From a virus, in IMG/VR virus record IMGVR_UViG_3300013126_000011: a DNA stretch of 64,000 bases; one strand, given 5' to 3'. The notes under the pieces were generated by a model. The model was not told the origin of the DNA and ran no database searches. It was given only the letters and a program-made list of their open reading frames with translations. The position numbers and the translations under genes are program-made. Shown piece by piece: positions 22,717-49,266 of the stretch (position 1 is its first letter; each line of letters opens with the position of its first letter).

Positions 22717-23090
22717 ATGAGCAACTAAAGAAAATCATTGAGTTAATCGGTACTGCTGGACTCAAGGAAGCAATCAAAGAGCTTCAAGAACTTTCTAGTA
22801 AGGCGACAGATCCAAGCAAGAAAGCAGTATTGGCAATCGTAATTAATGCTGTAGCGCTATATGGTGATAAAGGTATCGATATTGCTAAGGAAACAATTGA
22901 TAAGTTTTTTGGTGGTCAGGAAATTCCAGATACATCATTACTTTCATTAGAAGAGGCAAGCGATCTTTGGGCACAGATTCAGAATGATGAAGCAGATCAT
23001 AAAGAAGACGTAAATCGATTTGTGGCAATTACAACTTCAGTTGTCAGCAAGTTGTTTGCTGAGTTTGTAAAAGGACTGTTAGTAGTTTAA
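22713..23090 (+). CDS. hypothetical helical protein
   Basis: ATGA-coupled to the lipoprotein gene; GGAGG upstream. Confidence 0.65.
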   Translation: MNEQLKKIIELIGTAGLKEAIKELQELSSKATDPSKKAVLAIVINAVALYGDKGIDIAKETIDKFFGGQEIPDTSLLSLEEASDLWAQIQNDEADHKEDVNRFVAITTSVVSKLFAEFVKGLLVV

Positions 23091-30389: not shown

Positions 30390-30821
30390 ATGAATCTTAA
30401 AAAGATGATAAACGAGGCTTTCGAAGATCACATTAAGCAAGCCCAAGAAAAGCAACCAGAAATTATTCGTCATATCAAGTTGCAACTTCAAAGATTCGTT
30501 GAAGATGAATCGGTATTCACAGATATGATCGATGCTTTTGAACGCATTATCCGTATGGCTATGGCAGATAATACTTCTGATTCTGTTGACAAGATTGCAA
30601 GAGATCTAGACTTAGCTCCAGCTTTTGTCAGTTTTCATACCAGAATAGCGAAGAGAGATAAGAGCGATGGTTTACTGAATAAGTCGATTGACGTTAAACA
30701 GATTGCTTCAACAATTCAGAAACCAAAAGCCAGAGAATATGTACCTTCCTATCGTGATGAGAATGAAATGATTTATGGCAATTCTTATTCAGAGCCCGGT
30801 GGACATAGAACGGGAGATTAA
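30390..30821 (+). CDS. small protein with N-terminal LKKMIxE tag (putative internal head protein)
   Basis: MNLKKMINEAFE. Confidence 0.6.
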   Translation: MNLKKMINEAFEDHIKQAQEKQPEIIRHIKLQLQRFVEDESVFTDMIDAFERIIRMAMADNTSDSVDKIARDLDLAPAFVSFHTRIAKRDKSDGLLNKSIDVKQIASTIQKPKAREYVPSYRDENEMIYGNSYSEPGGHRTGD

Positions 30822-30823
30822 TT

Positions 30824-31933
30824 TTGTCATATCTTTTTCAGTTCGATCAAGATGATATTATTCATTCAACAAACGAGGCGCATCCTCGTTCAGAGATGAT
30901 AATCTTGTCAGATGGAACAAAACAATGTTCTTGGGAGCCTTCTGAAAGAAATGCCGATGGTTATTTGACCTATGGGCTGTCTGCTTCAAGTGGACAGTTT
31001 GTATATAAAGATTCTTCGAATGCTGATAGTTTTCCGACAGCATCATACGGAGAACAGATTCAATTAAATTCTGGAATGACAACTGCTTCGATTTCTTTAT
31101 ACAAATATTGGACAGGTTTCGATACTTCAAGCTACGAACAATATTTGTCAGCCATCAAGTCAACACTAAAGTACAACACTCTTCTAAGTCCTCATTTTGC
31201 TTTTAGCTCGTCCTATGGTGACAAGAGCGCTCAAGAGATGCTGATGATCAGCATTCCAGAGGCATTTTACGGAAGCAAAATACAAAAAGGATCTGTCAAG
31301 TTAAGTTTTCTTGAAACTGAAGTGCTGTTTGGTACTCTAGAAGATTCAAATCAAAATGGCGAATTAATTCAGACGTTTGGTGCAACCGGATCTGGATTAG
31401 TAGCTGGAGTTGTACTATATGATGAAGGCATTATCCTATTGACTGGTTCTTGGATCATTGATGACAGCATCGATGGATTGACTTATTCCGGAACATATCC
31501 GACTTGGAACACAGATGGCAAGCCTAGGTGGTGTTATTGGGGCGCAGACAATACAGATGAAAGTTTTCCATCATATACTTTGGAGTTTAATGGAACAGTA
31601 CAGACGCCAGTGATTTTGATGTATGCTCATGCACCAAAAGGATCGTTGAACCATTCCAATAATCCATCGTTTGTTGATCGAAATGATATGACAAGATATT
31701 TGAATTTTGCTAGCAGTTCTCATGGTTTTTATGAAGATGAGAAGGTAGGCTTAACCAACTCTATTTATTCAGAGTACAACGATGTACACAAAGATTTTCG
31801 AAAGCAAACATATATTTCGAAAGTTGCCGTTCTCGATGAAGACAAGAACGTAATTGCAATTGCCAGTTTAGCAGAGCCATTACGCAAACTTCAAGAGCGA
31901 GAGTACACGATAAAGATTTCGATTGACGGATAA
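30824..31933 (+). CDS. tail/baseplate structural protein (paralog of 29346..30359)
   Basis: IQKGSVKL, GVVLYDEGIILL, LNHSNNPSF, VAVLDEDKNVIAIASLAEPLRK. Confidence 0.65.
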   Translation: MSYLFQFDQDDIIHSTNEAHPRSEMIILSDGTKQCSWEPSERNADGYLTYGLSASSGQFVYKDSSNADSFPTASYGEQIQLNSGMTTASISLYKYWTGFDTSSYEQYLSAIKSTLKYNTLLSPHFAFSSSYGDKSAQEMLMISIPEAFYGSKIQKGSVKLSFLETEVLFGTLEDSNQNGELIQTFGATGSGLVAGVVLYDEGIILLTGSWIIDDSIDGLTYSGTYPTWNTDGKPRWCYWGADNTDESFPSYTLEFNGTVQTPVILMYAHAPKGSLNHSNNPSFVDRNDMTRYLNFASSSHGFYEDEKVGLTNSIYSEYNDVHKDFRKQTYISKVAVLDEDKNVIAIASLAEPLRKLQEREYTIKISIDG

Positions 31934-31946
31934 GGAAGCAAATACA

Positions 31947-32123
31947 ATGAATTTAGCCAAAGAACAACTTAAGAAAATGATTCAAGAAGCTTTGAGCGAG
32001 GTTCTTTCAGAAGCCACCTTTCAAGATAAAGTGAACGCTATCAAGAGAAGCGGAAAGTCAGAAGAGAGTGCTAAAAAGATTGCCGGTGCAATGGTAAGGG
32101 ATGAAAAGAAAAAGGGCAAATAG
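31947..32123 (+). CDS. small basic protein with N-terminal tag (putative internal head protein)
   Basis: MNLAKEQLKKMIQEALSEVLSE followed by a Lys-rich body; AAGGA SD upstream of the ATG at 31947. Confidence 0.7.
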   Translation: MNLAKEQLKKMIQEALSEVLSEATFQDKVNAIKRSGKSEESAKKIAGAMVRDEKKKGK

Positions 32124-32125
32124 CA

Positions 32126-32329
32126 ATGCAAATTACTCGTGAAGAATTAAAAAGAATCATTTGGAAGACTCTTCAAGAGATTTTGGATGATAAGAAAGAG
32201 GCTGCTCAGACAACCGTTGGCATTGTTCAAGATGTAAGTCAATTGTATGCTCAGAAACAGAAGAATTATCGCAAGGATGCTGAAACAAAGCCCAAGAAAG
32301 AAAAGAAGTGTGATTGCGATGGCAAATAA
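32126..32329 (+). CDS. small protein with N-terminal tag
   Basis: MQITREELKRIIWKTLQEILDD. Confidence 0.65.
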   Translation: MQITREELKRIIWKTLQEILDDKKEAAQTTVGIVQDVSQLYAQKQKNYRKDAETKPKKEKKCDCDGK

Positions 32330-32537
32330 ACGAGTTTTAATAGAAGCAGAGCAAAGACAAGTGCTGTCTGGATTTACAAAGTCAACTCTTAATGCTCTTA
32401 GGATTGCAATGGATAATGGCGTAACTGCTAGCCAACTAACAAGTGTTTTAACGAAGCTGTCAAGTCCAGATACAATCAATAGATTAAAAGCCACAGCTGG
32501 TGGCACAGATTCTATGTCAAGAGAGATTAATTCATGA
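32319..32537 (+). CDS. hypothetical protein
   Basis: ATG at 32319 overlaps the previous gene end; MANKRVLIEAE. Confidence 0.55.
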   Translation: MANKRVLIEAEQRQVLSGFTKSTLNALRIAMDNGVTASQLTSVLTKLSSPDTINRLKATAGGTDSMSREINS

Positions 32538-32577
32538 AATTAGAAGAAATAGTTTTATCTTAAAAGAGTAAAAACAA

Positions 32578-33132
32578 ATGCTTTTAGGTGCTGATCTTTC
32601 AACTAGCATATGCGGTATATCTGTTCTTGACGATGATGGCAAATTAGTTCTCTCAGAAGCCATCGATCTTCGCAATAAAAACAAATACAAAACATTAAAC
32701 GAAAAAGCAGATTGTGTACGCAAGCACTTAACTGATATTGCTACAATCTATCCAATCGAAAAAGTCTATATCGAAAAGTCTCTGTTTATGTTCACAAGTG
32801 GGAAATCTTCTGTGACAACACTGTTTCTGTTGGCAGGATTTAACACGCTTGTCAGCTATTTTTGCTATGATATCTTCAAGGTAGAGCCAGAATATATTTC
32901 AGCTACCACTGCCAGAAAAAGAGTCGGAATCGTGCTTGACAAATCTCAAGACACCAAAAAGCAGATTGTTGATTTTGCTAGACAGGAACCCGGTTTTAGT
33001 GTATCTTGGACTCCAAGTGGAAACTACGTACCATCGTGTGCTGACAGAGCAGATGCCTGGGTAGTTGCCAAAGCCTGTTGGATGGGTTCTAAGAGTGCAA
33101 AATCAAGCAGAAAAGCTAAAGATACTGACTGA
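32578..33132 (+). CDS. RuvC-like Holliday junction resolvase
   Basis: LGADLST, YIEK and DRADA provide the catalytic D/E/D/D pattern. Confidence 0.85.
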   Translation: MLLGADLSTSICGISVLDDDGKLVLSEAIDLRNKNKYKTLNEKADCVRKHLTDIATIYPIEKVYIEKSLFMFTSGKSSVTTLFLLAGFNTLVSYFCYDIFKVEPEYISATTARKRVGIVLDKSQDTKKQIVDFARQEPGFSVSWTPSGNYVPSCADRADAWVVAKACWMGSKSAKSSRKAKDTD

Positions 33133-34045
33133 CATTTTAGGCGATTTCTATCTTACTGGAGTCGAGAGGCTTTTCGCTTGTCCTAAGTGTCAGCACGATA
33201 AACGAAAACTTAGCATCAATCTTCAAAAATCAAAATTTAAATGTTGGCACTGCGACTGGAGAGGAAATCTCAATCGTCTTGTCAAGCAACTTGGTAATCA
33301 AACTCAAAGAACTGTTTGGAAAGAATTGACTGGACAAGTCGATTACGATCTCGGTTCTGTCAATGAAGATATGTTCTCGGAGCATATCGAAGAAGAAATA
33401 ATCGAACCAATCGAGTTGCCAACAGATTTCGTTAGTTTAGTTAAGAACACATATACATCAAGTGATAAAGCCGCCCTGAAGTATCTCAAATCGAGAGGGT
33501 TAACAACCAGAGATATTTTTCAATGGAAAATTGGGTACTGTGCCAAGGGTGATTACAAGCAACGAATTATTGTACCTTCTTTTGATTGTCAGGGAGAGCT
33601 AAACTACTTTGTCGGAAGAACCTATGTCGACAGCAATTACAAGTATTGGAATCCAAAAGTTCCAAAGAACATGATTTTTAATGAGCTTTATGTTGACTGG
33701 AAAAAAGAGATTGTTTTGGTCGAAGGCGTCTTCGATCAATTCGTGGCTGGCACTAATTCGATTGCCCTCTTGGGAAGCTCTCTAGACGAACACAACGCCC
33801 TATTCCAGCGTGTTGCGATGTCAGAGACTAGAGTTATAGTGGGTCTTGATCCTGATGCTGAGAAAAAGGCAAATAGGCTCATTTCTGAAATGTTGAAATA
33901 CGGAATCGAAATTTATAAAATGCAAATTGAGAACAAAAAGGATATTGGAGAGATGACCAAGGAAGAATTTCTGGAATGTAAGCGAGAAGCAAAGCCAATG
34001 TCAAACGACAACTATCTTTTGTATCTAATTGAGAGGATTAAGTAA
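33095..34045 (+). CDS. DNA primase (T4 gp61/DnaG-like)
   Basis: Zn finger CPKC...CWHC, YLKSRG, TOPRIM EGVFD and LDPD; start probably the GTG at 33095. Confidence 0.9.
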   Translation: MQNQAEKLKILTDILGDFYLTGVERLFACPKCQHDKRKLSINLQKSKFKCWHCDWRGNLNRLVKQLGNQTQRTVWKELTGQVDYDLGSVNEDMFSEHIEEEIIEPIELPTDFVSLVKNTYTSSDKAALKYLKSRGLTTRDIFQWKIGYCAKGDYKQRIIVPSFDCQGELNYFVGRTYVDSNYKYWNPKVPKNMIFNELYVDWKKEIVLVEGVFDQFVAGTNSIALLGSSLDEHNALFQRVAMSETRVIVGLDPDAEKKANRLISEMLKYGIEIYKMQIENKKDIGEMTKEEFLECKREAKPMSNDNYLLYLIERIK

Positions 34046-34050
34046 TAACA

Positions 34051-37000
34051 ATGAAGATAGCAGCTTTTTCAGATCTCCACGTAAAGACTCTCAAGTATCA
34101 TGAAGAATATCTTGCCGTATTTCAGGAGTTTTATAAGGATCTTCGAGAACAAAAGCCTGACGTAATTGTATGCGCTGGCGACATTGCTCACTCAAAGGTT
34201 GTGCTGTCGCCAGAATACTTCTCTATTGCCGCCAAGCTGTTCAAAGAGTTGGCTTCTATTGCGCCATTGTATATCCTAGCTGGTAATCATGATGCTTCCT
34301 TTCGTGGCATGACGCTTCGCAATGCTTCTAGACTTGATGCTATTACTCCAATCATCGAAGCTCTTGATAATTCAAATATTCACTATATGAAGCAGTCTGG
34401 AGAATACAACATCAATGACAATATAGTCTTAAATGCAATGTCGTTGTTTGATGTAGATGGTTGGATGCAGCCAACAGATCCAAGCAAGATCAATGTAGCA
34501 GTTTTTCATGGAGCGATCATCGACGCTTCAACAGACGTTGGCTATACGGTTGATCGTAGTTCTGGAATTGATCTGAGTTATTTTGATTCGTTTGATGCAG
34601 CAATTTTTGGAGACATTCATCGTCGTCAATTCTTTTCGAACACCCGAGGATATGTCGGTAGTTTGATTCAGCAGAATCATGGGGAAGGCGTAGAGAAAGG
34701 CTATAGTATTTGGCTCATTAAAAACAAGAATGATATCAGCGTAGAATTTAGACCTCTTCGCAATCCAAAGCCATTCATTACTGTCAATTTGGATCTGGCA
34801 GGTAATGTTCCTGCAAATCTAGAGATTCCAGTTGGTTCACATGTGCGTGTGGTTGCTCATTCTTATATCAGTCTAGACAAGATGCGAAAGTCTCTCGATG
34901 TTGTCAAATCGAAGTATTTGCCAGAAGATATTTCCTTTGTTAACAAGATTGACGAGACAAAGTTACAAGAGAGTGTTGCTGTATCTTCTGTTGTTCGCGG
35001 TGAAAATCTTCGTTATGATGAAGTACAAGAACGAATGATTCGAGATTATCTGAAAGATTTTAAGCCTGATGATGAAACCATGACTTCGATTTTGAAGTTA
35101 AATAATCAATATAATGCTGCAATTAAGAACGATGAAGAAGTCGCTCGTAATGTTCAGTGGTCTGTCAAAAAGATTGAATGGGATAATTTGTTCAATTACG
35201 GTTCTGGCAACTATATGAATTATGAGCAATTAAGCGGAGTTGCAGCTTTACTAGGAAAAAGTTTTGTAGGAAAAACTTCTACCATTGATGCCCTATTGTT
35301 CGGATTATTCAATACTACTTCAAAGAACGAAAGAAAGAATGTCAACGTAGTCAATCAACACAAGAATGATGCCGTTGTTCGTCTATGGCTTGAAGCAAAT
35401 GGAATCTCTTATCGTATTGAAAGACGAGTAGAAAAGTACGTTAAGCGGCTTCATGGAGTTGAAACAATCGAAGCTAAGACGGACGTTGATTTTTGGGAAA
35501 TGCAAGCTGATGGAATAGAAATTTCAAGAAATGGAGATACCAGAAGCGATACAGATAGGAACATTCGTACAATTTTTGGAACGGTTGAAGATTTTCTTTT
35601 GACTTCGTTATCTTCTCAGCATGGAGGTTTGCAGTATATCTTTGAGGGTTCAACGAAGCGCAAGGAAATTCTTGCTCGCTTTTTGGATCTTGACAGCTTT
35701 GACAAGAAGTTCAAGTTAGCCAAAGAAGATTCTTCGACCATCAAGGGAGCCTTGAAGCGCGTTGAAGGAATCGATTATGATACGACACTTTCACATGCCA
35801 GAACAAAGCTGCACCTCAATGAAAAAGAAGCTCAAAGAGTCGAGAACAAGCTGACAGAAATCAACAAGACTATTGCGGACAACCAGAATCAGATTGATTC
35901 ATTTAAGCAGCAGTTGGCTTTGATTCCAAAGGATATCAAGGAAATTACTGAGACAGAAGAAGAACTAGCTAAGAAGCTAATTCAACAAGATGCATTGACT
36001 TCGGAAAGAGATTCTTTGCTGGATCGCAATGAAGAGCTTAACAAGCTTATCGCGAAGTTGAATCATTTGCTTGATACGTTTGATATTGAAGGTTGTCGAA
36101 AGCAACAAGATTTAATCGAGCAACTATCTTCTGAAGCCAGGAAGATTGAAGAAAAAGTTGCAGAACTTAATAGAAACAAGTTGACAAATGATAAGAAGAC
36201 TCAATTGCTTCTTGAGGTTCCTTGTGGAGAACAGTTTCCTGCGTGCAAGTTTATTCGAGATGCGTTCAAGGCAAAGACAGAGAACGAGTACGTTTGTAAT
36301 AATCTAAAGTTGCAGTCAGAACAGCTTGAAAAATTGACAGCAGACAAGGAAGCATTGCAGCCAACAAAAATTGAGGATCTACTATACAAATATGCCGAAT
36401 TAGCCTCTCAGAAGACAGAGTTTGAGCAGGAGGTACTAACTAACCAGACTCTAATTGAAAAGGATGAAAACGCCCTTTCTGTGCTTATAGGATACGTTTC
36501 TGAGTTGCAGCAGAGAATTGCAAAGAGCAAGGCAGATCAAAAGCTGATTGATAGCGCCAAGAGTCTGCTTGAGCAATTATCTGAAGCGGAAAAGTTGTCA
36601 ATCAAATATGCTAAAGAACTCAGTAGGCTAACAACACAACGTCTTGAAGCCTATAAGACACATGGTAAACTTGAAGGTGAAATCAACTCTGTAACCGAAA
36701 AGATCGAAGAGCGAGAAACATTAAGAAATGAATTTGCGTCTTATGATTTGTTCATGCGTTGTATGCATTCTAACGGTATCAGTTACGACATTATCAAGAG
36801 TATGCTTCCAGTTTTAAATAATGAAGTTGCGAAGGTTCTAGCAAATATTGTTGATTTTGAAGTGTTTTTCGAAAATAATGATGATCGGTTGGACATTTTC
36901 ATTAAGCATCCAAAGCATGAGTCTCGTCCAATTGAGATGGGTTCTGGAGCAGAGAAAACAATTGCTGCAATGGCAATTCGATTGGCTTTAACGAAGATTG

Positions 37001-37212: not shown

Positions 37213-37232
37213 GTCGCTCACATTCTAGCCCT

Positions 37233-37239
37233 CTAATTA
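37233..37239 (+). promoter_or_regulatory. candidate late promoter CTAATTA
   Basis: The motif CTA[A/G/T]TTA recurs 28-34 nt upstream of several late starts. Confidence 0.55.
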
Positions 37240-37267
37240 CAATAGAATTCGATTAAGGAACTTTCAA

Positions 37268-37570
37268 ATGAACGATAAGATCCATCTTAAGCAAGAACAG
37301 CTAACAGTACTAATCAAGGAGGCTTTGAAAGAAATCGTCGACGATCATCTTAATGAAGAAGCTGGAGAATTATACGGATATGATAGGTATTATTCGGCTG
37401 GTATTCTTGATGGTTCAGTTGGCAAGGAAATGAATGATTCGGTTTCTCGTGGATTAAAGGGTGGTACTGCGAAAAAGGCTTATGAAGAGGGCTATGCTGT
37501 AGGGCTTAAACAATGGGTAGCTCGACAGCCAATTAAGAAAGTTCAACAAGCTCCAAGGTGGGAGGAATAA
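37268..37570 (+). CDS. small protein with N-terminal tag
   Basis: IHLKQEQLTVLIKEALKEIVDDHLNEE, then YxxG repeats (YSAG, YEEG, YAVG). Confidence 0.7.
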   Translation: MNDKIHLKQEQLTVLIKEALKEIVDDHLNEEAGELYGYDRYYSAGILDGSVGKEMNDSVSRGLKGGTAKKAYEEGYAVGLKQWVARQPIKKVQQAPRWEE

Positions 37571-37729
37571 ATGTTCATGAAGTTTATGTCAAGAAAATTA
37601 TTGGTATTGGTGGCTGCAACGGCACTGCTATATTTTGGTAAAATTACTCCGGATTTATGGAGTTATGTTGCCATGACTTATCTTGGCGCACAAGCATTGC
37701 TAGACTCGAAAGTTTCAAAAAAGCAGTAG
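37571..37729 (+). CDS. holin-like two-TM membrane protein, 52 aa (absent from the ORF track)
   Basis: MFMKFMSRKLLVLVAATALLYFGKITPDLWSYVAMTYLGAQALLDSKVSKKQ; GGAGG upstream; SRK plus two hydrophobic helices and a basic tail. Confidence 0.65.
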   Translation: MFMKFMSRKLLVLVAATALLYFGKITPDLWSYVAMTYLGAQALLDSKVSKKQ

Positions 37730-37734
37730 GATAA

Positions 37735-38100
37735 ATGAACACCGAGAAGAAAATCGATTATGATTATGCTGCTAGAGTAGAGAAGGAAGTTGCCAAGAAA
37801 TACGGCAACGATGCCATCGATCATCCAAAAGCAAATTGGAATATTGAGAAAGAAAAACAATATATTCAACAAGCAAGAGAGATGGCAATAAAGGAAGCGC
37901 AGAACGTTGTTGTTCGTAAAGAACTAGAACAAGACGTTTTAATTGATGAAAAGCTATTTAAAAAGACAGATTCGTCAATGCTTTTTGGAAAAAAGTGTCC
38001 AATTTGTGAGAAGAGAAGTCAACACGCAAGAGATGAAGTTTACTTCAAACTGTATGGATGCTGTTATATTTGCTCGATTAAAAAAGGAGTGGTAAGATGA
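37735..38100 (+). CDS. hypothetical protein with C-terminal Zn finger
   Basis: CPIC...CYIC. Confidence 0.7.
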   Translation: MNTEKKIDYDYAARVEKEVAKKYGNDAIDHPKANWNIEKEKQYIQQAREMAIKEAQNVVVRKELEQDVLIDEKLFKKTDSSMLFGKKCPICEKRSQHARDEVYFKLYGCCYICSIKKGVVR

Positions 38101-38405
38101 CAACTATCAACATTGATCGTCGAAAATTGATTGAGGCTGCAACAGCAAAGGCTCTGAGAGAAGCTGAAGAAGCCTTTAAAGCAAAGAAGCTGGCAAAGCA
38201 AAGTCCCGTTGGAAATGTTGCAAAGCCATGTGGTTGCAAGGATAAGATGAAGAATCTTCAGAAAGAAGAGATCGATCCTGTACCTACTCCAAGACAAAGC
38301 AAGAGTCCACTAAGTACGTTACCTCCTGAAGAGAGAGCGAAGCGTCAATACGAGCGAATGACCGGTAGAAAATGGAGCGATAAACAAGGTGGAGATACAC
38401 TATAA
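38097..38405 (+). CDS. small basic protein with tag-like N-terminus
   Basis: INIDRRKLIEAATAKALRE; AAGGAG SD. Confidence 0.65.
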   Translation: MTTINIDRRKLIEAATAKALREAEEAFKAKKLAKQSPVGNVAKPCGCKDKMKNLQKEEIDPVPTPRQSKSPLSTLPPEERAKRQYERMTGRKWSDKQGGDTL

Positions 38406-38953: not shown

Positions 38954-38956
38954 TGA

Positions 38957-41020
38957 ATGCCAAAGTATGTTCCAACAAAAGCAGAGATTCAGAAAGAGAT
39001 AATTCGTTGCGGTAACGATCCAAGCTATTTTCTTAAAAATTACGTAAAGATCGTTCACCCAACCAAGGGTCTAGTGCCATTTCTTCTCTACCCGTTTCAG
39101 GAAGAGACTTTAAAAAAGTTTGAAGATCATAGATTCAACATCGTTCTGAAATCAAGACAGATGGGTCTGTCAACATTAACATCTGCTTATGTGGCTTGGT
39201 TTATGTTGTTTCAGAAGAACCGAAACATTCTTGGTATAGCAACCAAATTGTCTGTTGCTGTCAACCTTGTAAGAAAAGTCAAGACAATCTTTTCAAATCT
39301 TCCAGGTTGGTTAGTTGATAATACGGCACAGATTTCTGTTGACAATAAGCAATCTTTGGAACTAACAAATGGTTCTCGATTTGTTGCTTCTGCCAAATCT
39401 GAAGATGCTGGTCGTTCTGAAGCTCTGTCGTTGTTGGTAGTTGACGAGTGTGTTGCCGGAAGTACAAAAGTAACTGTTCGAAGCAAAAAGACTGGCGAGA
39501 TCAGAGAAATCGAAATTCAAGAGCTATACGATTTGTATACGATCAAAAGTATAACAGAGTGGGAAGTCTTAACGCCTTCTGGTTGGAGTATTTTTTCTGG
39601 TGTCAAGAAAGTCTCTAAAAAGTGTTTTTATCGTATCAATACCACTAGAGGCGAGTTAGTTTGCTCTTATGAGCATAAACTTAAAATTTATGATGGTCGC
39701 TTTATGGCAGCTAATAAATTGCAAGTTGGTCAACTTCTATCTGAACAAGTAGAAATATTAGAGATTAAATATTTTGAAGAGGACATCGAGCTTTATGATC
39801 TGCTTGAAGTCGAAAAAGATCATGAATTTTATGCAAATGGAATTGTAAGTTCGAATTGCGCACACATCGAAGGTATGTCTGATATATGGACTTCGATTGG
39901 TCCTACAATCACATTGGGTGGTCGATGCATTGCTCTTAGTTCTCCCAATGGTGCTCAAGGTTGGTTCTACAAGTATTACGTTGACGGTGAGGCTGGAAGA
40001 AACGATTTTTGTGCAACCAAGTTACATTGGCGATTGCATCCTGATCGTGATGATGAGTGGTTTGAAAAAGAAACTCGCAATATGTCAAAACGCGAGGTAT
40101 CTCAAGAGTATTCATGCGGATTTTTATCTTCTGGTGCCACGCTCATTGATGGTGAAGATATCAAGAGAATGGAAGATTCGCAAGTACGCGATCCTGTTGA
40201 ACGAATTGCTTTTGACAGAAACTTGTGGATCTGGCAACATTACGATCCTGTTGCAAATTATTTGATTTCCGCTGACGTTGCCAGAGGTGACGGAGAAGAC
40301 TATTCTGTTTTTCATATTCTCCGATTGGATACGATGGAAGTGATCGGAGAATATCAAGGGAAATTAACTCCAGATCTCTTTGCAGATCTGTTAGCAAATA
40401 CTGGCAGAATGTATGGTGGCTGCATGATCGTTGTTGAGAATAATAACTTGGGTTGGATGGTGGCGAACAGGCTTAAAGATGCAATTCAATACAAGAATCT
40501 GTATTATGAATTAAAAGGCACTCACGATCACGTTGATCCAATCAGAGCCTCAAGAAACGATAAGGCTCATTGTGGCTTCAATACTGCTCCAAACGGTTTG
40601 GGCAATAGAACACACATTCTTGGTAAGCTGGAAGAGTTTGTTCGAAACAGGCAGATAACAATTCGTTCTGTACGTTTATTGAACGAAATGAAGACCTTCA
40701 TCTACAAAGAGACTGGCAAAGCAGAAGCAGCAAAAGGATATAACGACGATCTTGTAATGGCTCTGGCAATTGCTTGTTGGGTACGCGAGACAGCATTAAC
40801 ACAAAATGTAAAAGAATTGGCATATGCGAAAGCTCTATTGACTTCTATCTATGTATCTACAGCAACGATGGATACGAGAATTGAAGGACAAATTGGGTAT
40901 GGTTCTGGTCATGACTCGAAAGAGATAATGCAGAAGAGAAAAGAAGCCAGAGGACAACTTGATATATCAAAAGATGAAGTTATTCCAGGCGGCATGATGT
41001 TTCCAGTTTTTGTTGGATAG
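38957..41020 (+). CDS. terminase large subunit (gp17-like) with mini-intein
   Basis: KSRQMGLST (Walker A), LLVVDE (Walker B), SSPNG, ADVARG and NDDLVMA nuclease motifs. Confidence 0.95.
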   Translation: MPKYVPTKAEIQKEIIRCGNDPSYFLKNYVKIVHPTKGLVPFLLYPFQEETLKKFEDHRFNIVLKSRQMGLSTLTSAYVAWFMLFQKNRNILGIATKLSVAVNLVRKVKTIFSNLPGWLVDNTAQISVDNKQSLELTNGSRFVASAKSEDAGRSEALSLLVVDECVAGSTKVTVRSKKTGEIREIEIQELYDLYTIKSITEWEVLTPSGWSIFSGVKKVSKKCFYRINTTRGELVCSYEHKLKIYDGRFMAANKLQVGQLLSEQVEILEIKYFEEDIELYDLLEVEKDHEFYANGIVSSNCAHIEGMSDIWTSIGPTITLGGRCIALSSPNGAQGWFYKYYVDGEAGRNDFCATKLHWRLHPDRDDEWFEKETRNMSKREVSQEYSCGFLSSGATLIDGEDIKRMEDSQVRDPVERIAFDRNLWIWQHYDPVANYLISADVARGDGEDYSVFHILRLDTMEVIGEYQGKLTPDLFADLLANTGRMYGGCMIVVENNNLGWMVANRLKDAIQYKNLYYELKGTHDHVDPIRASRNDKAHCGFNTAPNGLGNRTHILGKLEEFVRNRQITIRSVRLLNEMKTFIYKETGKAEAAKGYNDDLVMALAIACWVRETALTQNVKELAYAKALLTSIYVSTATMDTRIEGQIGYGSGHDSKEIMQKRKEARGQLDISKDEVIPGGMMFPVFVG
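39449..39856 (+). mobile_element. mini-intein (136 aa) in terminase, immediately after Walker B
   Basis: VVDE|CVAGSTKV...CSYEHKL...LYDLLEVEKDHEFYANGIVSSN|CAHI; no endonuclease domain. Confidence 0.9.
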
Positions 41021-41030
41021 GAGAGGCTGA

Positions 41031-41825: not shown

Positions 41826-41827
41826 AG

Positions 41828-43756
41828 ATGGCTACAAATACTCGCAATCCGTATAATAATGAGAATGAGCTATTCAAGAGATTAACGAGACTGTTCAGTG
41901 GTCCAATTATCAATCTCAAAGCTCAGACTTATCATGATCTAAAGCGAAAGCAACTTGATAAATACAAGTTCAAGAGTGCTTCAGGAAAGAGTTTCAAGAG
42001 AGCAGAGTACAACCCATTTGAGAGTATTCAGTTAGCACAACTAAGCAATCAAAACAGAACGAGCAGATATATTGATTATGATCAAATGGAGTATGAGCCA
42101 ATTATTGCTTCAGCATTGAATTTGTATATGGACAGCATTACATTTAGTACGGATATGAATGAAATGTTACGTATTCAATGTTCAAATGCTCAAATCAAAA
42201 GCGCATTACATACGTTATTTTATGATATTCTAAATATCGAATTAAATGGTTCCGGTTGGGTGCGAAGTACAATTAAATATGGTGATTTTTTCCTGTATCT
42301 CGATATCGATGAAAAGACTGGTATCCGAAATGCTATAGCTTTGCCAGCGCATGAAATCGAACGCCTTGAGGGCGAAGATCCAACCAATCCTAACTATGTG
42401 CAATATCAATGGAACTCTGGTGGTCTAACGTTTGAATCTTGGCAAATGGCACACTTCAGACTGCTTGGTAATGATAAGATGGCACCGTACGGTACGTCAA
42501 TATTAGAACCCGCACGGCGTATCTGGAGACAATTAAATTTGTTAGAAGATTACATGCTTTCATATCGTATTGTTCGTTCTTCCGGTCGAAGAGTCATTTA
42601 TCTTGATGTTGGACATATTGCTCCAGAAGACGTAGAACAGTACGTATTGAACGTTCAAAATGTAATGAAGAAGAATCAGGTACTAGATCAAACTTCTGGT
42701 CGATTCGATCTCCGTTACAATGCTCACTATGCAGTTGAAAATGATTTCTATGTTCCTATTCACGGTGATTCCAAGACGAGAATTGATGAACTAAACGGTT
42801 CGTCCTATAATGGCGGAATTGATGATGTAAAATATCTGAAAGACAAACTGTTTGCTGCTCTTCAAGTTCCTCAATCGTATTTGTTCAGAGGTGAAGGTGG
42901 CGATGAAGATAAGACCACCCTGGCAACAAAAGATGTAAGATTTGCTCAAACAGTATTGAGACTTCAGAAGAATTTCCTTTCGGAGCTTTATCTGATTGCA
43001 ATTGCTCATCTTTACGTTTTGGGATTCAGAGACAAAGATCTTATCGACTTCAAACTAAGCTTCAACAACCCTTCCAGAATTGCAGAGCTACAAGAACTTG
43101 AATATATGAAGACCAAGTTTGATGTTGGTGCTTCAGCTACAGAAAATATGTTCTCTCGACGTTATGTTGCCAAGAATATTTTTGCATTGTCTGAAGAAGA
43201 GTTTGAACGTAATCAAAGAGAACGTTACTATGATGCTGTACAAGATGCAGCCATTGCAGCTATTTCAGAAGGCGAAGAAGGTGGAATGGGTGGCGGATCT
43301 GGTGGAGATCTCTTTGGTGATATGGGTGGTGAAGGAGATGCAGATATTGACGAACTAACCGATGATGTAATGGGAGATGCGGGAGAAGGTGAAGCTGGAG
43401 GTGGAACAGATGAAGATTCAATGCTTCTTGCTGCACCAGCCAAGAGAGAAGAAACAACCACTCCAAGATCAAATGGCAAGATGTATCGACCAGAAGTTGT
43501 TGATAAGCGTTCAATTGGAGCAAGAGCAAGAAACATGAACGCTCAATGGGGCTCTTCCAGCACCAAGAACACAACTCGTAATGTTTGGAAGGGTTATCCA
43601 GAACTCAAGAGTCTTTCTCGTGGAATCGCTGAGAAGCAAGACACTAGTTATGAACGAGAAGAAACGGATCTTTTGCGAACTAGTGTTCAAACAAGAAGAT
43701 TGGTCGAAGCATTTGAAAAGAGAACAAAGAAGAATGAGAACGAAACAGCACAATAA
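41828..43756 (+). CDS. portal protein (gp20-like)
   Basis: YDQMEYEPIIASAL, KYGDFF, PYGTSILEPARRIWRQLNLLED, DDVKYLKDKLFAALQVP; Gly/acidic C-terminal tail. Confidence 0.93.
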   Translation: MATNTRNPYNNENELFKRLTRLFSGPIINLKAQTYHDLKRKQLDKYKFKSASGKSFKRAEYNPFESIQLAQLSNQNRTSRYIDYDQMEYEPIIASALNLYMDSITFSTDMNEMLRIQCSNAQIKSALHTLFYDILNIELNGSGWVRSTIKYGDFFLYLDIDEKTGIRNAIALPAHEIERLEGEDPTNPNYVQYQWNSGGLTFESWQMAHFRLLGNDKMAPYGTSILEPARRIWRQLNLLEDYMLSYRIVRSSGRRVIYLDVGHIAPEDVEQYVLNVQNVMKKNQVLDQTSGRFDLRYNAHYAVENDFYVPIHGDSKTRIDELNGSSYNGGIDDVKYLKDKLFAALQVPQSYLFRGEGGDEDKTTLATKDVRFAQTVLRLQKNFLSELYLIAIAHLYVLGFRDKDLIDFKLSFNNPSRIAELQELEYMKTKFDVGASATENMFSRRYVAKNIFALSEEEFERNQRERYYDAVQDAAIAAISEGEEGGMGGGSGGDLFGDMGGEGDADIDELTDDVMGDAGEGEAGGGTDEDSMLLAAPAKREETTTPRSNGKMYRPEVVDKRSIGARARNMNAQWGSSSTKNTTRNVWKGYPELKSLSRGIAEKQDTSYEREETDLLRTSVQTRRLVEAFEKRTKKNENETAQ

Positions 43757-44564
43757 GAAACGAAATACAGCCTTTCTATTTGAGGTTCTTGTTCGTGAAT
43801 ATACTAAGGCAGCGATGAACAAGGACGAGAGCTATAGAAAAGATCTGCTAAAGATCATTCAAGAGTCATTCAATAAGAAGACTTTGCTTGGACAAGAGCT
43901 TTATCTATATCGTCTACTATCAAAAGAGACTGGTGTATCTCGTAGGATTGCCGAGAAGTTTCTTGCTGAAGCCAAGCGTGTACGAGGCTTATTGAATCCT
44001 GGCATGCTTTATGCAGAACAATCGAAATTGCTTGCTGATATTCATGATCTTGAGACAAAAAAGAACAGTAGAATCATGGACAATTTTGTTCCAAACTACA
44101 AGAACTTAGCAACGATTGCTCAGATTTTTGGTAGAGCGCCAGTCATGACAGTAAAATCAAGGATTGTGCTGGAAGAAGCCGTAATTAAGACGATGACACA
44201 AAGCGAGAGAGTTTTGGAAGAATCGATTCTTGAGCCAGTTGATTCGTTGACATACAAGACGTTCTCAAAGAAATTTGAAGACACCTATGCTCCAAAGCTG
44301 CTCTCAGAACAAAAGCAACTATTGAACAAGCTGATCTTTTCGTTCACTGATAATGGAGTTGGATTCAAGGCTTATCTTAATGAAGAACTAGGAAGATTGA
44401 AGAACGCTTTGACTGCTGCGTTCAATGAAGAGAAAGACTCAGCAATGCTTGAGAATGCAAACAAAGTAACAAAGCTTGTTGAATCGTTTGCCAAGAAACC
44501 AATTGATGAAGAGATGTTGACAACTGTAATGCAAATTCAGGAGTTGGTTAAGGAGTTAGCGTAA
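43734..44564 (+). CDS. head-module protein (probable prohead core component)
   Basis: MRTKQHNKKRNTAFLFEVLVRE; directly after portal; contains LxE sites. Confidence 0.6.
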   Translation: MRTKQHNKKRNTAFLFEVLVREYTKAAMNKDESYRKDLLKIIQESFNKKTLLGQELYLYRLLSKETGVSRRIAEKFLAEAKRVRGLLNPGMLYAEQSKLLADIHDLETKKNSRIMDNFVPNYKNLATIAQIFGRAPVMTVKSRIVLEEAVIKTMTQSERVLEESILEPVDSLTYKTFSKKFEDTYAPKLLSEQKQLLNKLIFSFTDNGVGFKAYLNEELGRLKNALTAAFNEEKDSAMLENANKVTKLVESFAKKPIDEEMLTTVMQIQELVKELA

Positions 44565-44642
44565 TTGGCAATTTCCGACACAAAGCTAAGAAATTATATT
44601 GTGAAGGTTCTCTTGGAATTAACGAAGGATTTGGAACACTAA
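44565..44642 (+). CDS. 25-aa micro-ORF consisting of the N-terminal tag only
   Basis: TTG start right after the upstream stop, AAGGAG 9 nt upstream, stop overlaps the next ATG (TAATG); MAISDTKLRNYIVKVLLELTKDLEH. Confidence 0.55.
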   Translation: MAISDTKLRNYIVKVLLELTKDLEH

Positions 44643-45193
44643 TGCCAGCAACCATTCAAATAAGAGTCGGCAATAACAACAATGCCGAAGAACAAAAACC
44701 TGAAGTTGCACCATTGACGATTAAGCTCAATGCTCGAAAGACAATGGATGGCAATATTATGGTAAATGATCATACAGACGTTTATATCATGTTGATGCCA
44801 TCACAAAAGAAGGTTTTGACGTTCGCCAAAGAAGAATTCGGAGATCATGTTTACGACACACAGAATCGCTTGTTCAAATTCTTGACAGCGAAGGGTGTTA
44901 TTCTTCCAGATTCGATTCATGCGGGAAATATCTATAGTTCAATGGAAGCAACATATCCAGAATCATCAAAAGATTATGATCCTGCAAAGATGGTCTTGTT
45001 CATGATTGCCAAGTGGATTGAGGAAGAAAAACCCTATCTATCTTGGGGGCAATCATTAGAAGATGCTCAAGAAGAACAATTGCTTGAGCCTGATGCAGAG
45101 AATAGTACGGAATTGGGTGAGGTGCCACAAAAGGAACGAAAGGGTTCCATCAATGCATATACGTCAATGGGGCGTTATATGTACGGGATTTAA
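44642..45193 (+). CDS. hypothetical head-module protein
   Basis: ORF in the head operon; PDAENSTELGEVP tail. Confidence 0.7.
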   Translation: MPATIQIRVGNNNNAEEQKPEVAPLTIKLNARKTMDGNIMVNDHTDVYIMLMPSQKKVLTFAKEEFGDHVYDTQNRLFKFLTAKGVILPDSIHAGNIYSSMEATYPESSKDYDPAKMVLFMIAKWIEEEKPYLSWGQSLEDAQEEQLLEPDAENSTELGEVPQKERKGSINAYTSMGRYMYGI

Positions 45194-45207
45194 GGAGATA
45201 ACGATAG

Positions 45208-45915
45208 ATGATTAACGAACAGCAAAAAAGAGCAATTTTAGAGCCAGAGCAAGTATTCAATCCCGTTCCGTCTTTGCAAGAGCGCGTTGTTGTATTGGAA
45301 ACGGAAGAGGAAACAGCCGATCAAAAGGCGGCTTTGAATGCTGCCAATAGTCCTGATGCAGAAAATCCATTTGTGACAATTGAAGATTTAAATGGAATCA
45401 CTGGAAGCGCAGGCGATGTAAACTTGTTATTAGAGAATTTGATTTCATTATATACGTATCATAATATAGATGCCATTTCTTCTGGTTCTGCATTTGAGCT
45501 AGCAATTTTAAAAGATGGAAATTGGGGCTTCGTATCAGATTTTAACGAAGACTATAGTTTTATGTTTGTGTATGAGACTGGTTCTTCAGCGTCAATTCCG
45601 GTATATACTAGTAGTTTAGCTTTAATGGCTACTGATGTTTACATTAGAAACGCTGACGATACGTTCATATTTAATAATGATTCGTTTACCTTTTCTACTA
45701 TTCCGGTTTATTTGTCGGATGGTAGATGTATTGAAGTTGCAAAGGATCTTGATTGCACTGGCTCGTCTGAACAATTTTCAAAAGTCTATATAACAAGTCC
45801 AAATTGGGAAACGTTTACGTTATCTACGCTCTTGGCGAATATTCCGACAGCTGAAAATAAGAGAATTTATACGAACAACAGTATTTCTTTGGGATTTGAA
45901 CGAACTGTAGTTTAG
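45208..45915 (+). CDS. putative fibre/decoration protein
   Basis: DQKAALNAANSPDAENPFVTIEDL fibre-like motif and a beta-rich C-terminus; AAGGAG SD. Confidence 0.5.
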   Translation: MINEQQKRAILEPEQVFNPVPSLQERVVVLETEEETADQKAALNAANSPDAENPFVTIEDLNGITGSAGDVNLLLENLISLYTYHNIDAISSGSAFELAILKDGNWGFVSDFNEDYSFMFVYETGSSASIPVYTSSLALMATDVYIRNADDTFIFNNDSFTFSTIPVYLSDGRCIEVAKDLDCTGSSEQFSKVYITSPNWETFTLSTLLANIPTAENKRIYTNNSISLGFERTVV

Positions 45916-45927
45916 TGGAGTTCTTAT

Positions 45928-46149
45928 ATGAAGCTGGCAGAATTAATTCTTAAGAAGATGATTCGCGAAGCAGTTGAGGATGTCAAGAAAGATAGCGATC
46001 AAAAAGACTCTTGGCAGGCAATGAACGCGCTTGAATTATCAGAATATATGCAGGCTTTGAGAGCTAGGGTGCGATCTGAAGTGCAAGAGATTGAGCGGAT
46101 AAATCAACGTTTGCGAAAGTTAGGATATACAATTGATGGAAAACATTAA
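45928..46149 (+). CDS. small protein with N-terminal tag
   Basis: MKLAELILKKMIREAVE. Confidence 0.7.
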   Translation: MKLAELILKKMIREAVEDVKKDSDQKDSWQAMNALELSEYMQALRARVRSEVQEIERINQRLRKLGYTIDGKH

Positions 46150-47866
46150 AAGCCAGATAACAGATCAAGTAGCTGGCAAGTTTCTTCTGACAGAGTGGTT
46201 TGGTCTTTGTCCTGGCGGCGTTTGCCAAGATTTACTAACTGAAGCCGAGAAGCTTGATATCAAAAACAATAAAGCTGTTTATCTTACTGGCATTATGCAA
46301 AGAGCAGATGCCAAGAATGGTAATGGTCGAGTATATCCATATGAAACACTTAAGCGAGAGATGGACGTTTATCAGAAAATGATCAATGAACATCGAGCGT
46401 TAGGTGAGTGTGTTGATGGGGAAACAGAGTGCTTGACGAAGGATGGCTGGAAATCGATTGTTGACGTTAAAGAAAATGAAGAAATTTATACATTTAATGT
46501 CGACACGGAAGAAATGCAACTTCAGCCAGTCTTAATCAAGACTGAACGACTGCATCAAGGAAAAATGATTCATATTCATAACAAGAACAAGATTGATATG
46601 TTGCTCACTCCAGAGCATAAAATGATTTTGTGGGATCGATACGATAAGTCGTTTGAAATCACTGCTGGAGAGTTTGCTGAGAATTTCGAGACAGATTCGG
46701 GACTTCAACATTCATATTTTAGACGTGGCGGCATGAAGTGGAATGGAAAGCAAGCTGACACTGTTACAATTGGTTCTCATACGTATGATGCTGATCTTTG
46801 GGCAGCTTTTCTTGGTATTTATTTAGCAGAGGGTTTTACTTCTTATGACAAGAAAAATTGGGCAGAAGGTTGGAGAGTTTTTGTAGTTCAAACAAAAGAA
46901 GACACCAAAAATGAAATTCGAAAATTATTTAATGCATTATTCGCTAGCGAGAGAATTTATGAGACTACAAATAAAATTTCCAATAAGACTTCTTTTTCTG
47001 TTGTAAACAAAGACGTATTCGATTATGTAAGACCATTGGGGAAATCGTGGGAGAAATACATTCCAGAGGAAGTTAAAGAATGGGACGTTCGTAGACTTGA
47101 AATTTTGCTCGAATGGATGCTTAAGGGCGATGGCAGAAATCGACACAACAAAAAAGGCGAATTGATGAGGGAGTTGCACACAACTTCTTATCGATTAGCA
47201 AATGATGTGTCTGAAATCTTTCTGAAATTGGGTAGTGGTTCTGTAATGTCCGAGAGAACACAAAAAGATCGGATGATTGAGGGTAGGTTGATTGAAACCA
47301 AGAATTGTAGAAAATTGTACATTTCGTCTGAAAGTGTTACAAATCGTTCTTATTTTTATAAGAAATTTTTGAATATTAACGAAGTGGAATATGACGATAA
47401 TGTATACTGTGTAACGGTTGAGAACAAAACTTGGATTGCTCGTAAAAATGGTAGAATATTTATTACCCATAATTGTGATCACCCGACCTCAGAATTAGTC
47501 GAATTAAAAAATGCTTCTCATATGATCACAAGAACTTGGTGGAACGGAAAGGACGTTATGGGGACGCTTAAAGTGCTTTCCACGCCTTCCGGTAAAATTC
47601 TGGAAGCATTAGTGCGTGATGGCGTTCAGGTTGGAATCTCTTCCAGAGGTCTTGGAACGCTAACAGAAACCAGTGAAGGTTTGATGGTTGAAGATGATTT
47701 TGAGCTTGTTTGTTTTGATATTGTATCGGAACCATCAACTACCGGAGCTTTCATGAAGCCGACAATGTTGCATGAATCAAAAGTTCGTTTTAGCGACGTA
47801 TATACAAAAGCAGATCGAATTAATCGAATGATGATCAAAATTTTGAACGGAGTAAACAATAAATGA
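46133..47866 (+). CDS. prohead core protease (gp21-like) with LAGLIDADG intein
   Basis: NGNGRVYP, RALGE|...|CDHP, GISSRGLG, FDIVSEPST. Confidence 0.93.
   Translation: MMENIKSQITDQVAGKFLLTEWFGLCPGGVCQDLLTEAEKLDIKNNKAVYLTGIMQRADAKNGNGRVYPYETLKREMDVYQKMINEHRALGECVDGETECLTKDGWKSIVDVKENEEIYTFNVDTEEMQLQPVLIKTERLHQGKMIHIHNKNKIDMLLTPEHKMILWDRYDKSFEITAGEFAENFETDSGLQHSYFRRGGMKWNGKQADTVTIGSHTYDADLWAAFLGIYLAEGFTSYDKKNWAEGWRVFVVQTKEDTKNEIRKLFNALFASERIYETTNKISNKTSFSVVNKDVFDYVRPLGKSWEKYIPEEVKEWDVRRLEILLEWMLKGDGRNRHNKKGELMRELHTTSYRLANDVSEIFLKLGSGSVMSERTQKDRMIEGRLIETKNCRKLYISSESVTNRSYFYKKFLNINEVEYDDNVYCVTVENKTWIARKNGRIFITHNCDHPTSELVELKNASHMITRTWWNGKDVMGTLKVLSTPSGKILEALVRDGVQVGISSRGLGTLTETSEGLMVEDDFELVCFDIVSEPSTTGAFMKPTMLHESKVRFSDVYTKADRINRMMIKILNGVNNK
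46409..47473 (+). mobile_element. intein (355 aa) with LAGLIDADG homing endonuclease, in the prohead protease
   Basis: CVDGETECLT...LTPEHKM; FLGIYLAEG and LLEWMLKGDG blocks; VYCVTV...FITHN|C. Confidence 0.93.
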
Positions 47867-48171
47867 AATTAACTGAATCTCAATTAAAGCAAATTATTAG
47901 AGAGATCATCAAGGAAACTTGGAGAGATTTTCCATCTGACACTTATGCTAGCTCTGGCAACGGGCATTCTGTTAATAGAGAAGTAGATTGGCTTAAAAAT
48001 CAGCAAGATGCTAGTGCAAATGATGTTTCGTCTTGGCAAATCGTATCTTATGGAAAAAAGGTAGCCAAAGTGAATGCGTCGAACGAACGACAGGCTTTGC
48101 AAAAGTTCTTCGTGCAAAACAAGATCGATTTTAAAAATCAAAAACTATATGACGTGGTGCCAGCATCATGA
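47863..48171 (+). CDS. small protein with N-terminal tag
   Basis: MKLTESQLKQIIREIIKETWRD. Confidence 0.75.
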   Translation: MKLTESQLKQIIREIIKETWRDFPSDTYASSGNGHSVNREVDWLKNQQDASANDVSSWQIVSYGKKVAKVNASNERQALQKFFVQNKIDFKNQKLYDVVPAS

Positions 48172-48719
48172 AATTAACTGAAGCAGTATTAAAGAAAATC
48201 ATCCTTAAAGAGATTGCCGATCTTGATCTGCCTTTTGTAAATGAAGATGAGACAGTTCCGAATCCACAAATTGAACAGTGCATTGAAACATTGACTGATA
48301 CTTTGATCGATACATATGTTTCTCAGCATTCTGATTATCCAGGTGAATATGAGCATGAATCATTATCTGACAAGATTGAGCAGATTGTTCGCTCGCATGT
48401 TCAAGAAGCAATTCGACAAGTACAAGACTTTGCAAAGCATCATGGACCAAAAGAGTTTGCATTGGAGGAAGGATTTTTGGGATTTGGAAAGAAAGATCCG
48501 GCAGATAAGCTGCTGAAAGACCCTGGATTTAGAGCCGCTTGTCACAGTTTTAGACAGTCGCCTCCGGGTGAATTGGGAATGATTAGTCGAAAGATGCGAA
48601 TTGTAGCGGCACAAGTTTTATCTGATCAGGATATTGCTTTTACATCTGATGGCGAAGACGGCTTGGACATATTGGTGACTAAAGCCTATCAGCGATATGT
48701 TCGAGAAAATTCAATCTAA
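48168..48719 (+). CDS. protein with N-terminal tag and internal LxE sites
   Basis: MKLTEAVLKKIILKEI...FVNE...ALEEGFLG. Confidence 0.7.
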   Translation: MKLTEAVLKKIILKEIADLDLPFVNEDETVPNPQIEQCIETLTDTLIDTYVSQHSDYPGEYEHESLSDKIEQIVRSHVQEAIRQVQDFAKHHGPKEFALEEGFLGFGKKDPADKLLKDPGFRAACHSFRQSPPGELGMISRKMRIVAAQVLSDQDIAFTSDGEDGLDILVTKAYQRYVRENSI

Positions 48720-48735
48720 GAGAAACGAGGAAGAA

Positions 48736-49266
48736 ATGGATCGCAATAAATTAAAGGCACTTTTGAAGCCATTAATCAAGGAAGCGTTAAAAGAATGCAT
48801 TCTTGAAGAAGGTGTAATTTCAACGATTATTCGAGAGTCAATGAGTTTGACTGTCAATGATGTTGCCCCTCGTCAAGTTGTCAGAGAACAGAGAGCAAAG
48901 CCTTCTTCTGGAAAGAACAAGTTTGCGGAAGCATATGAAAGTCATTCTCTTGGAGAAGACGATCCTTCGGAAAATAGTGAAGTAGATGATGACGCTTTGA
49001 TTGCCAAGCAAGAAGAGATTGCAGCTTCCAGAAGAAGAATCGCTGAATCTCTTCGAAGTAGAATTGGTGCAGACATATTCGAAGGAACAGAAGCAATTGG
49101 CGGCGATCCAATGCAAGAACTAGCTGCTGGTAATAATCCTGGCGTTGCTGCCGCAAAGGGTCCATTGGCTGATGTAGATCCAAATGACGAAGGAGTCAAT
49201 TTAGGTCTAATTACAGAGATTGCCGGTGGCAGAAAAAACTGGAAGCAAGTAATGGAGAGAGTATAA
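48736..49266 (+). CDS. head-module protein with N-terminal tag
   Basis: MDRNKLKALLKPLIKEALKECILEE; GAGG SD upstream of 48736. Confidence 0.7.
   Translation: MDRNKLKALLKPLIKEALKECILEEGVISTIIRESMSLTVNDVAPRQVVREQRAKPSSGKNKFAEAYESHSLGEDDPSENSEVDDDALIAKQEEIAASRRRIAESLRSRIGADIFEGTEAIGGDPMQELAAGNNPGVAAAKGPLADVDPNDEGVNLGLITEIAGGRKNWKQVMERV

Follow-up and report, generated by a model that had tools for sequence, protein, structure and literature searches.

A Shared N-Terminal Peptide on Proteins with Unrelated Bodies

Why would a phage place the same short peptide at the start of small proteins that otherwise have nothing in common? This question is raised by a 64,000-nucleotide stretch of IMG/VR virus record IMGVR_UViG_3300013126_000011 (hereafter, the window), a portion of an uncultured T4-like lake myovirus in which every long open reading frame (ORF) is on the + strand. 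A preliminary description of the window proposed that at least ten of its ORFs, which we name here by their first nucleotide, begin with a common amphipathic pattern that would load a variable set of proteins into the head for release by a protease like gp21 of phage T4. Our analyses identified a defined N-terminal peptide, the class A tag, on five of these ORFs and on many proteins of related phages, and the features of its sequence suggest that it is probably an amphipathic helix acting as a capsid-targeting propeptide that is removed by the head protease.

All the peptides quoted in the preliminary description were found where it had placed them, ORFs 47863 and 48168 do have identical first 15 nucleotides (ATGAAATTAACTGAA), and an I/L-x-E is present inside residues 9–22 in eight of the ten peptides listed. 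The bodies of the proteins were also confirmed to be unrelated: all-against-all BLASTP after removal of 25 residues produced nothing better than E 0.1, and in full-length comparisons every alignment fell within the first ~22 residues.

Membership was examined with profile hidden Markov models (HMMs), using the six-frame ORF set of the window (n = 1,832) as the background for ranking. When each of seven hand-aligned window tags was left out of the HMM in turn, the omitted ORF came first or second in six of the seven cases. An independent profile, derived from 16 tags of other contigs only, had as its top five window ORFs 31947, 48168, 45928, 47863 and 32126 (E 2e-6 to 3e-3), and in each of them the match began with model position 1 at the initiator Met. 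No comparable match was obtained inside long genes, where internal matches had E ≥ 5, plus one weak partial stretch in 48168. Of the ten or more members originally proposed, five are solid, three are variants (37268, 30390 and 48736, the last of which is discussed below) and two have no support (38097 and 44565). The nine ORFs other than 48736 are as follows, with slashes marking predicted cuts.

31947..32123, + strand: tagged protein, 58 residues, class A tag MNLAKEQLKKMIQE/ALSE/VLSE/A; top match of the independent profile (E 2e-6)
32126..32329, + strand: tagged protein, 67 residues, MQITREELKRIIWKTLQE/; independent profile E 3e-3, leave-one-out rank 2
45928..46149, + strand: tagged protein, 73 residues, immediately 5' of the head protease gene; independent profile E 3e-5
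47863..48171, + strand: tagged protein, 102 residues, immediately 3' of the protease gene, MKLTESQLKQIIRE/IIKE/TW; independent profile E 3e-5
48168..48719, + strand: tagged acidic protein, 183 residues, MKLTEAVLKKIILKE/; independent profile E 7e-6
37268..37570, + strand: variant tag, 100 residues, MNDK-IHLKQEQLTVLIKE/ALKE/...LNE/E; leave-one-out rank 1 (E 0.018), independent profile E 1.5
30390..30821, + strand: truncated tag, 143 residues, MN-LKKMINE/AFED, matching tag columns 8–17; E 0.03–0.13 in every profile
38097..38405, + strand: no detectable tag; listed in the preliminary description, no match with any tag profile
44565..44642, + strand: 25-residue micro-ORF with a TTG start, unsupported as a member; listed in the preliminary description, no tag-profile match

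The true start of 31947 is the ATG at that position and not a TTG upstream. In 32126 a Lys replaces the Glu at column 14, and the start of 48168 overlaps the stop of 47863 (ATGA). The variant tag of 37268, located between an Mre11/Rad50-like gene and the terminase gene, is behind a four-residue extension. ORF 30390 is without the first six residues of the tag and was the best non-training match in every profile (E 0.12 in the independent one); its body was not conserved in five relatives, and no homologue of 38097 was found in relatives.

The tiny ORF 44565 is tag-like by eye, has an AAGGAG Shine-Dalgarno sequence and fills the gap before 44642, whose ATG its stop codon overlaps. We rejected the idea that it is a frameshifted or detached leader (or tag) of 44642, because 29 orthologues of 44642 start MAITIKI with no leader.

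In an AT-rich genome, N-termini rich in Lys, Glu, Ile and Leu might resemble one another by chance or composition; the G+C content of the window is 38–40%, and 38097 and 44565 were indistinguishable from background. As a general explanation we consider this extremely improbable, because the independent profile found five ORFs at Met1 among 1,832 and, when 1.84 billion representative proteins were searched with a tag profile, 2,739 clusters matched at E ≤ 1e-3. Chance is excluded for the five core members.

An ORF at 22713–23090, among tail and baseplate genes, starts with MNEQLKKIIELIG, like the shortened tag of 30390 (E only 0.2–16). The C-terminus of a three-domain GNAT protein (49911–51161) is a tag-like helix, NQLSEMILEAVNVALNKFSR, with a weak match (E 5.5), and some tagged proteins of relatives have a half-tag C-terminus (…AITEAILKRIIQKR). 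Two adjacent genes with similar ends, at 29346–30359 (…NIKIRLDW) and 30824–31933 (…TIKISIDG), may be paralogues; tagged ORFs 30390 and 31947 come directly after each.

Anatomy of the Tag and Its Resemblance to the T4 Capsid-Targeting Sequence

The consensus of 179 distinct tags, with the percentage at each position, was M98 K86 [I/L/V]97 T88 K76 x Q56 L97 K72 Q56 I70 I91 K59 E95 E84 L55. Position 12 was Ile in 91% of these tags (Val in 7% more) and position 14 was Glu in 95% and Asp in 1%, with the other polar columns varying freely. A second [LIV]-x-E often occurs about eight residues after the first. The tag spans 15–30 residues, and its hydrophobic spacing fits an amphipathic helix. The tag was found at the extreme N-terminus, at residue 1, in 145 of the 150 best database matches. 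The invariant residues Leu8 and Ile12 are each encoded by three or four synonymous codons; selection is therefore on the peptide and not the mRNA, and an RNA-level signal was rejected.

These features are similar to those of a well-characterized system. Internal proteins of T4 have a 10–19-residue N-terminal capsid-targeting sequence (CTS) that binds the scaffolding core and is removed by gp21 after L/I-x-E (PMC9026906, PMC5694885), and it is carried by IPI, IPII, IPIII and Alt (Mullaney and Black 1996, as reviewed in PMC9026906, PMC5694885). In IPIII, positions 4 and 7 are needed for targeting and positions 8 and 10 for processing, with an Asp at position 10 blocking the cut; the CTS has already been suggested as an evolutionary device for loading varied proteins (PMC9026906). 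The class A tag is likewise a short shared peptide at the N-terminus of unrelated small proteins, with an M-K start, a hydrophobic-x-x-hydrophobic-I-x-E pattern and a gp21-family protease in the same genome, and in both systems the cargo genes are variable and dispersed. Residues Y4, F7, I8 and E10 of the T4 IPII/IPIII sequence MKTYQEFIAE/A line up with L8, I11, I12 and E14 of the tag, which we interpret as a likeness of pattern and not homology.

The two also differ. As the preliminary description held, this is a longer, distinct tag, having 14 residues to the first Glu and often 22–30 to the last site, vs. 10–19 in T4, and no detectable homology to the CTS. Unlike the CTS, it is also carried by ~1–12 genes per genome that occupy conserved islands, and it additionally occurs internally in multi-module proteins.

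The Head Protease and the Genes beside It

If the tag is a propeptide, the same genome should supply a protease that could remove it. The relevant genes of the window are as follows.

46133..47866, + strand: prohead protease of the T4 gp21 family (S77); PF03420 E 1e-23, with Intein_splicing and LAGLIDADG_3 matches
48736..49266, + strand: class B core-like protein, 176 residues, with the helix LKPLIKE/ALKE/CILE/E; start at ATG 48736; orthologues aligned, synteny shared by relatives
51452..53095, + strand: probable major scaffold protein, 547 residues, directly 5' of the capsid gene; position and N-terminus as in Flavobacterium phage immuto and Microcystis phage Mel-JY01
53128..54837, + strand: gp23-type major capsid protein; phrog_138 E 5e-66, predicted maturation site L58-R59-E60/A61

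The gp21-like protease that the preliminary description had assigned at 46133 was supported both by its Pfam match and by alignment of its exteins with T4 gp21 and relatives, in which ALGE[intein]CDHP and GISSRG were kept, leaving the catalytic His and Ser motifs intact around the intein. The N-terminal LLTE of the protease aligned with LLIE-9 of T4 gp21. In the capsid protein, the T4 gp23 cut site (LTE65/A) aligned over an L-[RK]-E/[AS] that is conserved in the clade. Judged from these capsid and protease sites, the (L/I)-x-E cutting rule seems to have been kept in the clade.

The protease intein is of the LAGLIDADG type and is inserted at ALGE/C...HN/CDHP, beside the catalytic His (His85 of T4 gp21); relatives have ALGELDHP and no intein. 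Head maturation in the window phage would therefore depend on protein splicing.

An S77 protease was present in all four tag-bearing IMG/VR contigs that were at least 79% complete and in 12 of 20 tag-bearing contigs overall (8 of the 16 fragments). The tag-bearing fragments had estimated full sizes of ~180–240 kb, mostly 180–190 kb.

ORF 48736 requires a separate reading. The preliminary description had included it among the tagged cargo. Its match with the independent tag profile was poor (E 0.41), and it belongs to a separate conserved, single-copy family with a related helix, the class B family, that is located one to three genes 3' of the protease gene clade-wide and is adjacent to it in 13 of 17 relatives. 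An AF2 model of class B had a helix at residues 3–40 (the best confidence), a disordered stretch and a helix at 85–110, with a mean pLDDT of 61. For 48736, a role as a conserved protein of the core or scaffold type fits better than one as cargo.

Motif Skews and the Fate of the Tagged Proteins

Proteins exposed to a protease in the prohead might be expected to show this in their content of its cut motif. Compared with shuffled sequences, the observed/expected ratio of [LI]xE was 2.26 in the scaffold protein (z +4.2) and 3.12 in class B, whose z-score is inflated because the alignment rows are homologous, vs. 1.34 in a set of 35 window proteins that lack the tag. The ratio fell to 0.72 (z −5.9) in the bodies of the 150 best tagged proteins, taken as 259 segments, and related motifs in the same segments were all above 1 ([LI]xD 1.30, [LI]xK 1.22, Ex[LI] 1.27). 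These differences by protein class fit the pattern predicted from protease exposure, in which the motif would be rich in proteins to be destroyed and avoided in those to survive. The contrast between scaffold-rich and cargo-poor proteins could also offer a sequence-only test of protease exposure for use on other phages.

The bodies themselves gave few clues. Searches of Pfam and PHROG produced no match for any of the ten ORFs listed in the preliminary description (31947 included) and nothing in ten tagged proteins of relatives, with only sporadic matches in the best 150 database proteins. The window bodies had no homologues in relatives or among 5.8 billion proteins; word-indexed searches of 47863, against those 5.8 billion proteins, and of the 48168 body returned self-matches only, and an ESM Atlas look-up of 48168 gave no usable lead.

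These data bear on whether the tagged proteins might instead be accessory parts of the prohead core or scaffold, analogues of T4 gp67 and gp68, that co-assemble via the helix and are then degraded and expelled at maturation, neither stored nor ejected. There are parallels. T4 gp67, gp68 and gp22 are small helical proteins beside the protease gene with several L/I-x-E sites and are cut up in maturation, and 45928, 47863, 48168 and class B are in equivalent positions. The best-conserved tag slots adjoin the protease gene, with the slot before it in the place of T4 genes 67 and 68. The tags also resemble the N-terminus of class B, which is rich in cut motifs, and the slot proteins of some relatives are Ala/Gly/Lys-rich low-complexity helices with a tag-like C-terminus. 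However, the class A bodies are not conserved at all, being hypervariable and without homologues even between close relatives, unlike assembly factors; the avoidance of [LI]xE in the best-scoring tagged bodies is the opposite of its enrichment in the scaffold and class B; and many tagged genes are far from head genes. We therefore consider it unlikely that the tagged proteins are core components.

Distribution of the Tag in Related Phages

The cultured phages nearest to the window by capsid identity were all distant (Mel-JY01, 45%; immuto, 43%; Rhodothermus phage RM378, 33%), and megablast of the head region produced no match. In IMG/VR, at least 144 related capsid loci were identified at ~50–57% identity, of which 80 were used as head loci. 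Every profile match in these 80 loci was on the capsid-gene strand, and they contained about 22 distinct ORFs of 85–342 residues with unrelated bodies and the tag exactly at Met1. The number of tags per genome was 1–7 in five long contigs of the closest relatives (70–100% complete, CheckV) and 5–12 in five further capsid-clade genomes. At least 120 stretches of IMG/VR contained the exact consensus DNA pattern, frequently where small genes form tandem arrays, and the ten database matches that we looked up were all metagenomic, including the marine GOS set.

Gene order was shared across the clade (terminase, portal, g43734, g44642, a variable slot, protease, class B, bS21, others, scaffold, capsid), with one or two genes sometimes intervening between the protease and class B. 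Tagged genes occupied four conserved islands, namely 5' of an Mre11/Rad50-type gene, between this gene and the terminase gene, before the protease gene and after it, and the tag members of the window are distributed over these four islands as well. Of 17 relatives, 13 had one or two tagged ORFs in the slot that separates g44642 from the protease gene, and another two had a diverged form there.

Many proteins had more than one tag. Two to four copies were present in 136 of the 150 best database matches, a set in which ranking by total score favors multi-copy proteins. Within eight residues before internal tags of multi-tag proteins, [LIVMF]xE was found in 55% of cases vs. 8% of background windows, an arrangement by which a polyprotein could be cut into its modules by the protease. 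The Met at the start of many internal tags suggests recent gene fusions or internal starts. Of two internal tags that start at an ATG, one had a Shine-Dalgarno-like sequence and the other did not, and a third example checked was a diverged copy.

One relative (L238, G009:165500–166600) encodes a tagged 279-residue protein that also contains a DVWPSAYASGAVVRCRKG motif, a stretch rich in Lys and Cys and another tag in diverged form; this protein may be a nucleic-acid- or metal-binding cargo. In four marine relatives (L236, L237, L241 and L242), several tagged genes are preceded, at a distance of ~35–45 nucleotides, by CTATTTAYT, a possible promoter element; this motif was not enriched in the window.

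Evidence Weighing against a Head-Targeting Role

A number of observations count against the tag being a propeptide for head targeting. At the presumed cut site, Glu14 is followed by a Glu in most tags, vs. Ala or Ser at the T4-type sites examined. The T4 core proteins had no match with the tag profile, just as the CTS had no detectable homology to the tag, and hhalign of class B against T4 gp22, gp67 and gp68 gave probabilities of 0.05–0.33%, i.e., no homology. A further 63 bodies, sampled from related loci, showed a weaker depletion of [LI]xE (1.07 vs. 1.50 in control ORFs of the same loci), and the window's own 731 body residues gave 0.88, which was not significant. In many proteins the tag was repeated internally or close to the C-terminus, and 59% of these copies began with Met, a feature that a pure N-terminal address does not require.

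The distribution and setting of the tag also raise doubts. No tag was found in the cyanophages Syn9, S-PM2 and P-SSM2 or in pelagiphage HTVC008M, and immuto had three weak tag matches. No match was produced by tblastn against 50,697 GenBank phage records, for which the queries were class B, 47863, the tag of one relative and a protein with two tags; the low-complexity filter may have contributed to this result. Two of the tag islands flank genes for a DnaG-type primase and the Mre11/Rad50-type protein, and the four sites in the window for the T4 late promoter, TATAAATA, included none near a tagged gene. The restriction of the motif to late genes that the preliminary description had expected is not supported by these two results. 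In addition, arrays of tiny, fast-evolving orphan genes are also typical of early host-takeover regions.

In one alternative, the tag would have a role outside the capsid, either as a docking helix for a chaperone, a membrane, a modifying enzyme or self-association, or as the border of a recombination cassette that shuffles small early genes, with I-x-E merely a part of the helix. The internal and C-terminal copies, the tandem arrays of small ORFs and the replication and recombination genes flanking islands 1 and 2 all point in that direction. Against it, the near-absolute Glu, not Asp, two residues after Ile suits a Glu-specific protease better than a generic helix, the tag accompanies the S77 protease in all the near-complete contigs, and the motif skews in the scaffold, class B and the bodies are those that protease exposure predicts. 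No radical-SAM or other candidate partner enzyme was detected among the neighbors tested. On these grounds we regard a non-capsid role as improbable.

A Proposed Route into the Head and Its Relation to Known Systems

In the route that a head-targeting propeptide would imply, the tag helix would dock its protein onto the scaffolding core during prohead assembly, with this core including the scaffold protein (51452) and class B (48736), whose N-terminus resembles the tag. After closure of the shell, the spliced S77 protease (46133) would cut after the conserved Glu, which would free the small mature protein within the head. Meanwhile, the high content of this motif in the scaffold and class B would expose both to being chopped up and expelled, and the packaged proteins could then be ejected into the host.

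We speculate further, as a possibility that we hold only tentatively, that this route serves a system of cassettes shared by the whole lineage. Small, rapidly evolving proteins in their thousands, including tag-punctuated polyproteins, would be encoded in the four islands of an abundant, uncultured aquatic T4-like clade, loaded into the head by one helix and trimmed by the protease. Their mature parts may have evolved to resist that protease, and they might be injected together with the DNA as a diversifying arsenal for host takeover or anti-defence.

A targeting propeptide that is removed at (L/I)-x-E is established T4 biology and not a new mechanism, and as a packaging signal is already an established use of the T4 CTS, that application is also not new. 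The novelty lies in the tag's sequence and length, in its lineage-wide use in uncultured aquatic T4-like phages, and in the islands at conserved positions, the proteins with several tags and the skews in the cut motif. We did not find the motif in the literature, nor any paper on the virions of immuto or Mel-JY01, and searches of the literature and GenBank yielded no virion proteome of a tag-bearing phage.

Propeptides in the giant phages phiKZ, 201phi2-1 and SPN3US offer a second comparison. These are also removed by the prohead protease after Glu, are thought to be head-targeting, have multiple cut sites and are found on paralogues with near-identical N-termini; they differ in being mostly over 100 residues, in having an A/S-x-E cut motif and in having no sequence relation to the tag (PMC5694885).

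If the head-targeting assignment is correct, a simple profile would be enough to single out which proteins are packaged, and probably injected, by a large group of uncultured myoviruses from lakes and oceans. Such proteins, whose function is unknown, would number in the thousands and would be likely to act within seconds of the start of infection. The capsid-targeting principle of T4 would then extend beyond the laboratory T-even phages, and the address would be a different and longer one.

Neighboring Genes of the Window

Two other genes of the head region in the window were assigned.

38957–41020, + strand: large terminase, apparently intein-bearing
41828, + strand: portal (phrog_213)

The apparent intein of the terminase (…VVDE/CVAGSTKV … VSSN/CAHIEG) was read by eye from the translation. 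A gene for a bS21-like ribosomal protein is located between class B and the scaffold in the window and in many relatives (L015, L028, L040, L049, L053 and L056). Between the portal and the variable slot, the region 43734–45193 encodes two proteins (276 and 183 residues) that are kept clade-wide and have no family match; the 276-residue protein (g43734) is also present in immuto and Mel-JY01.

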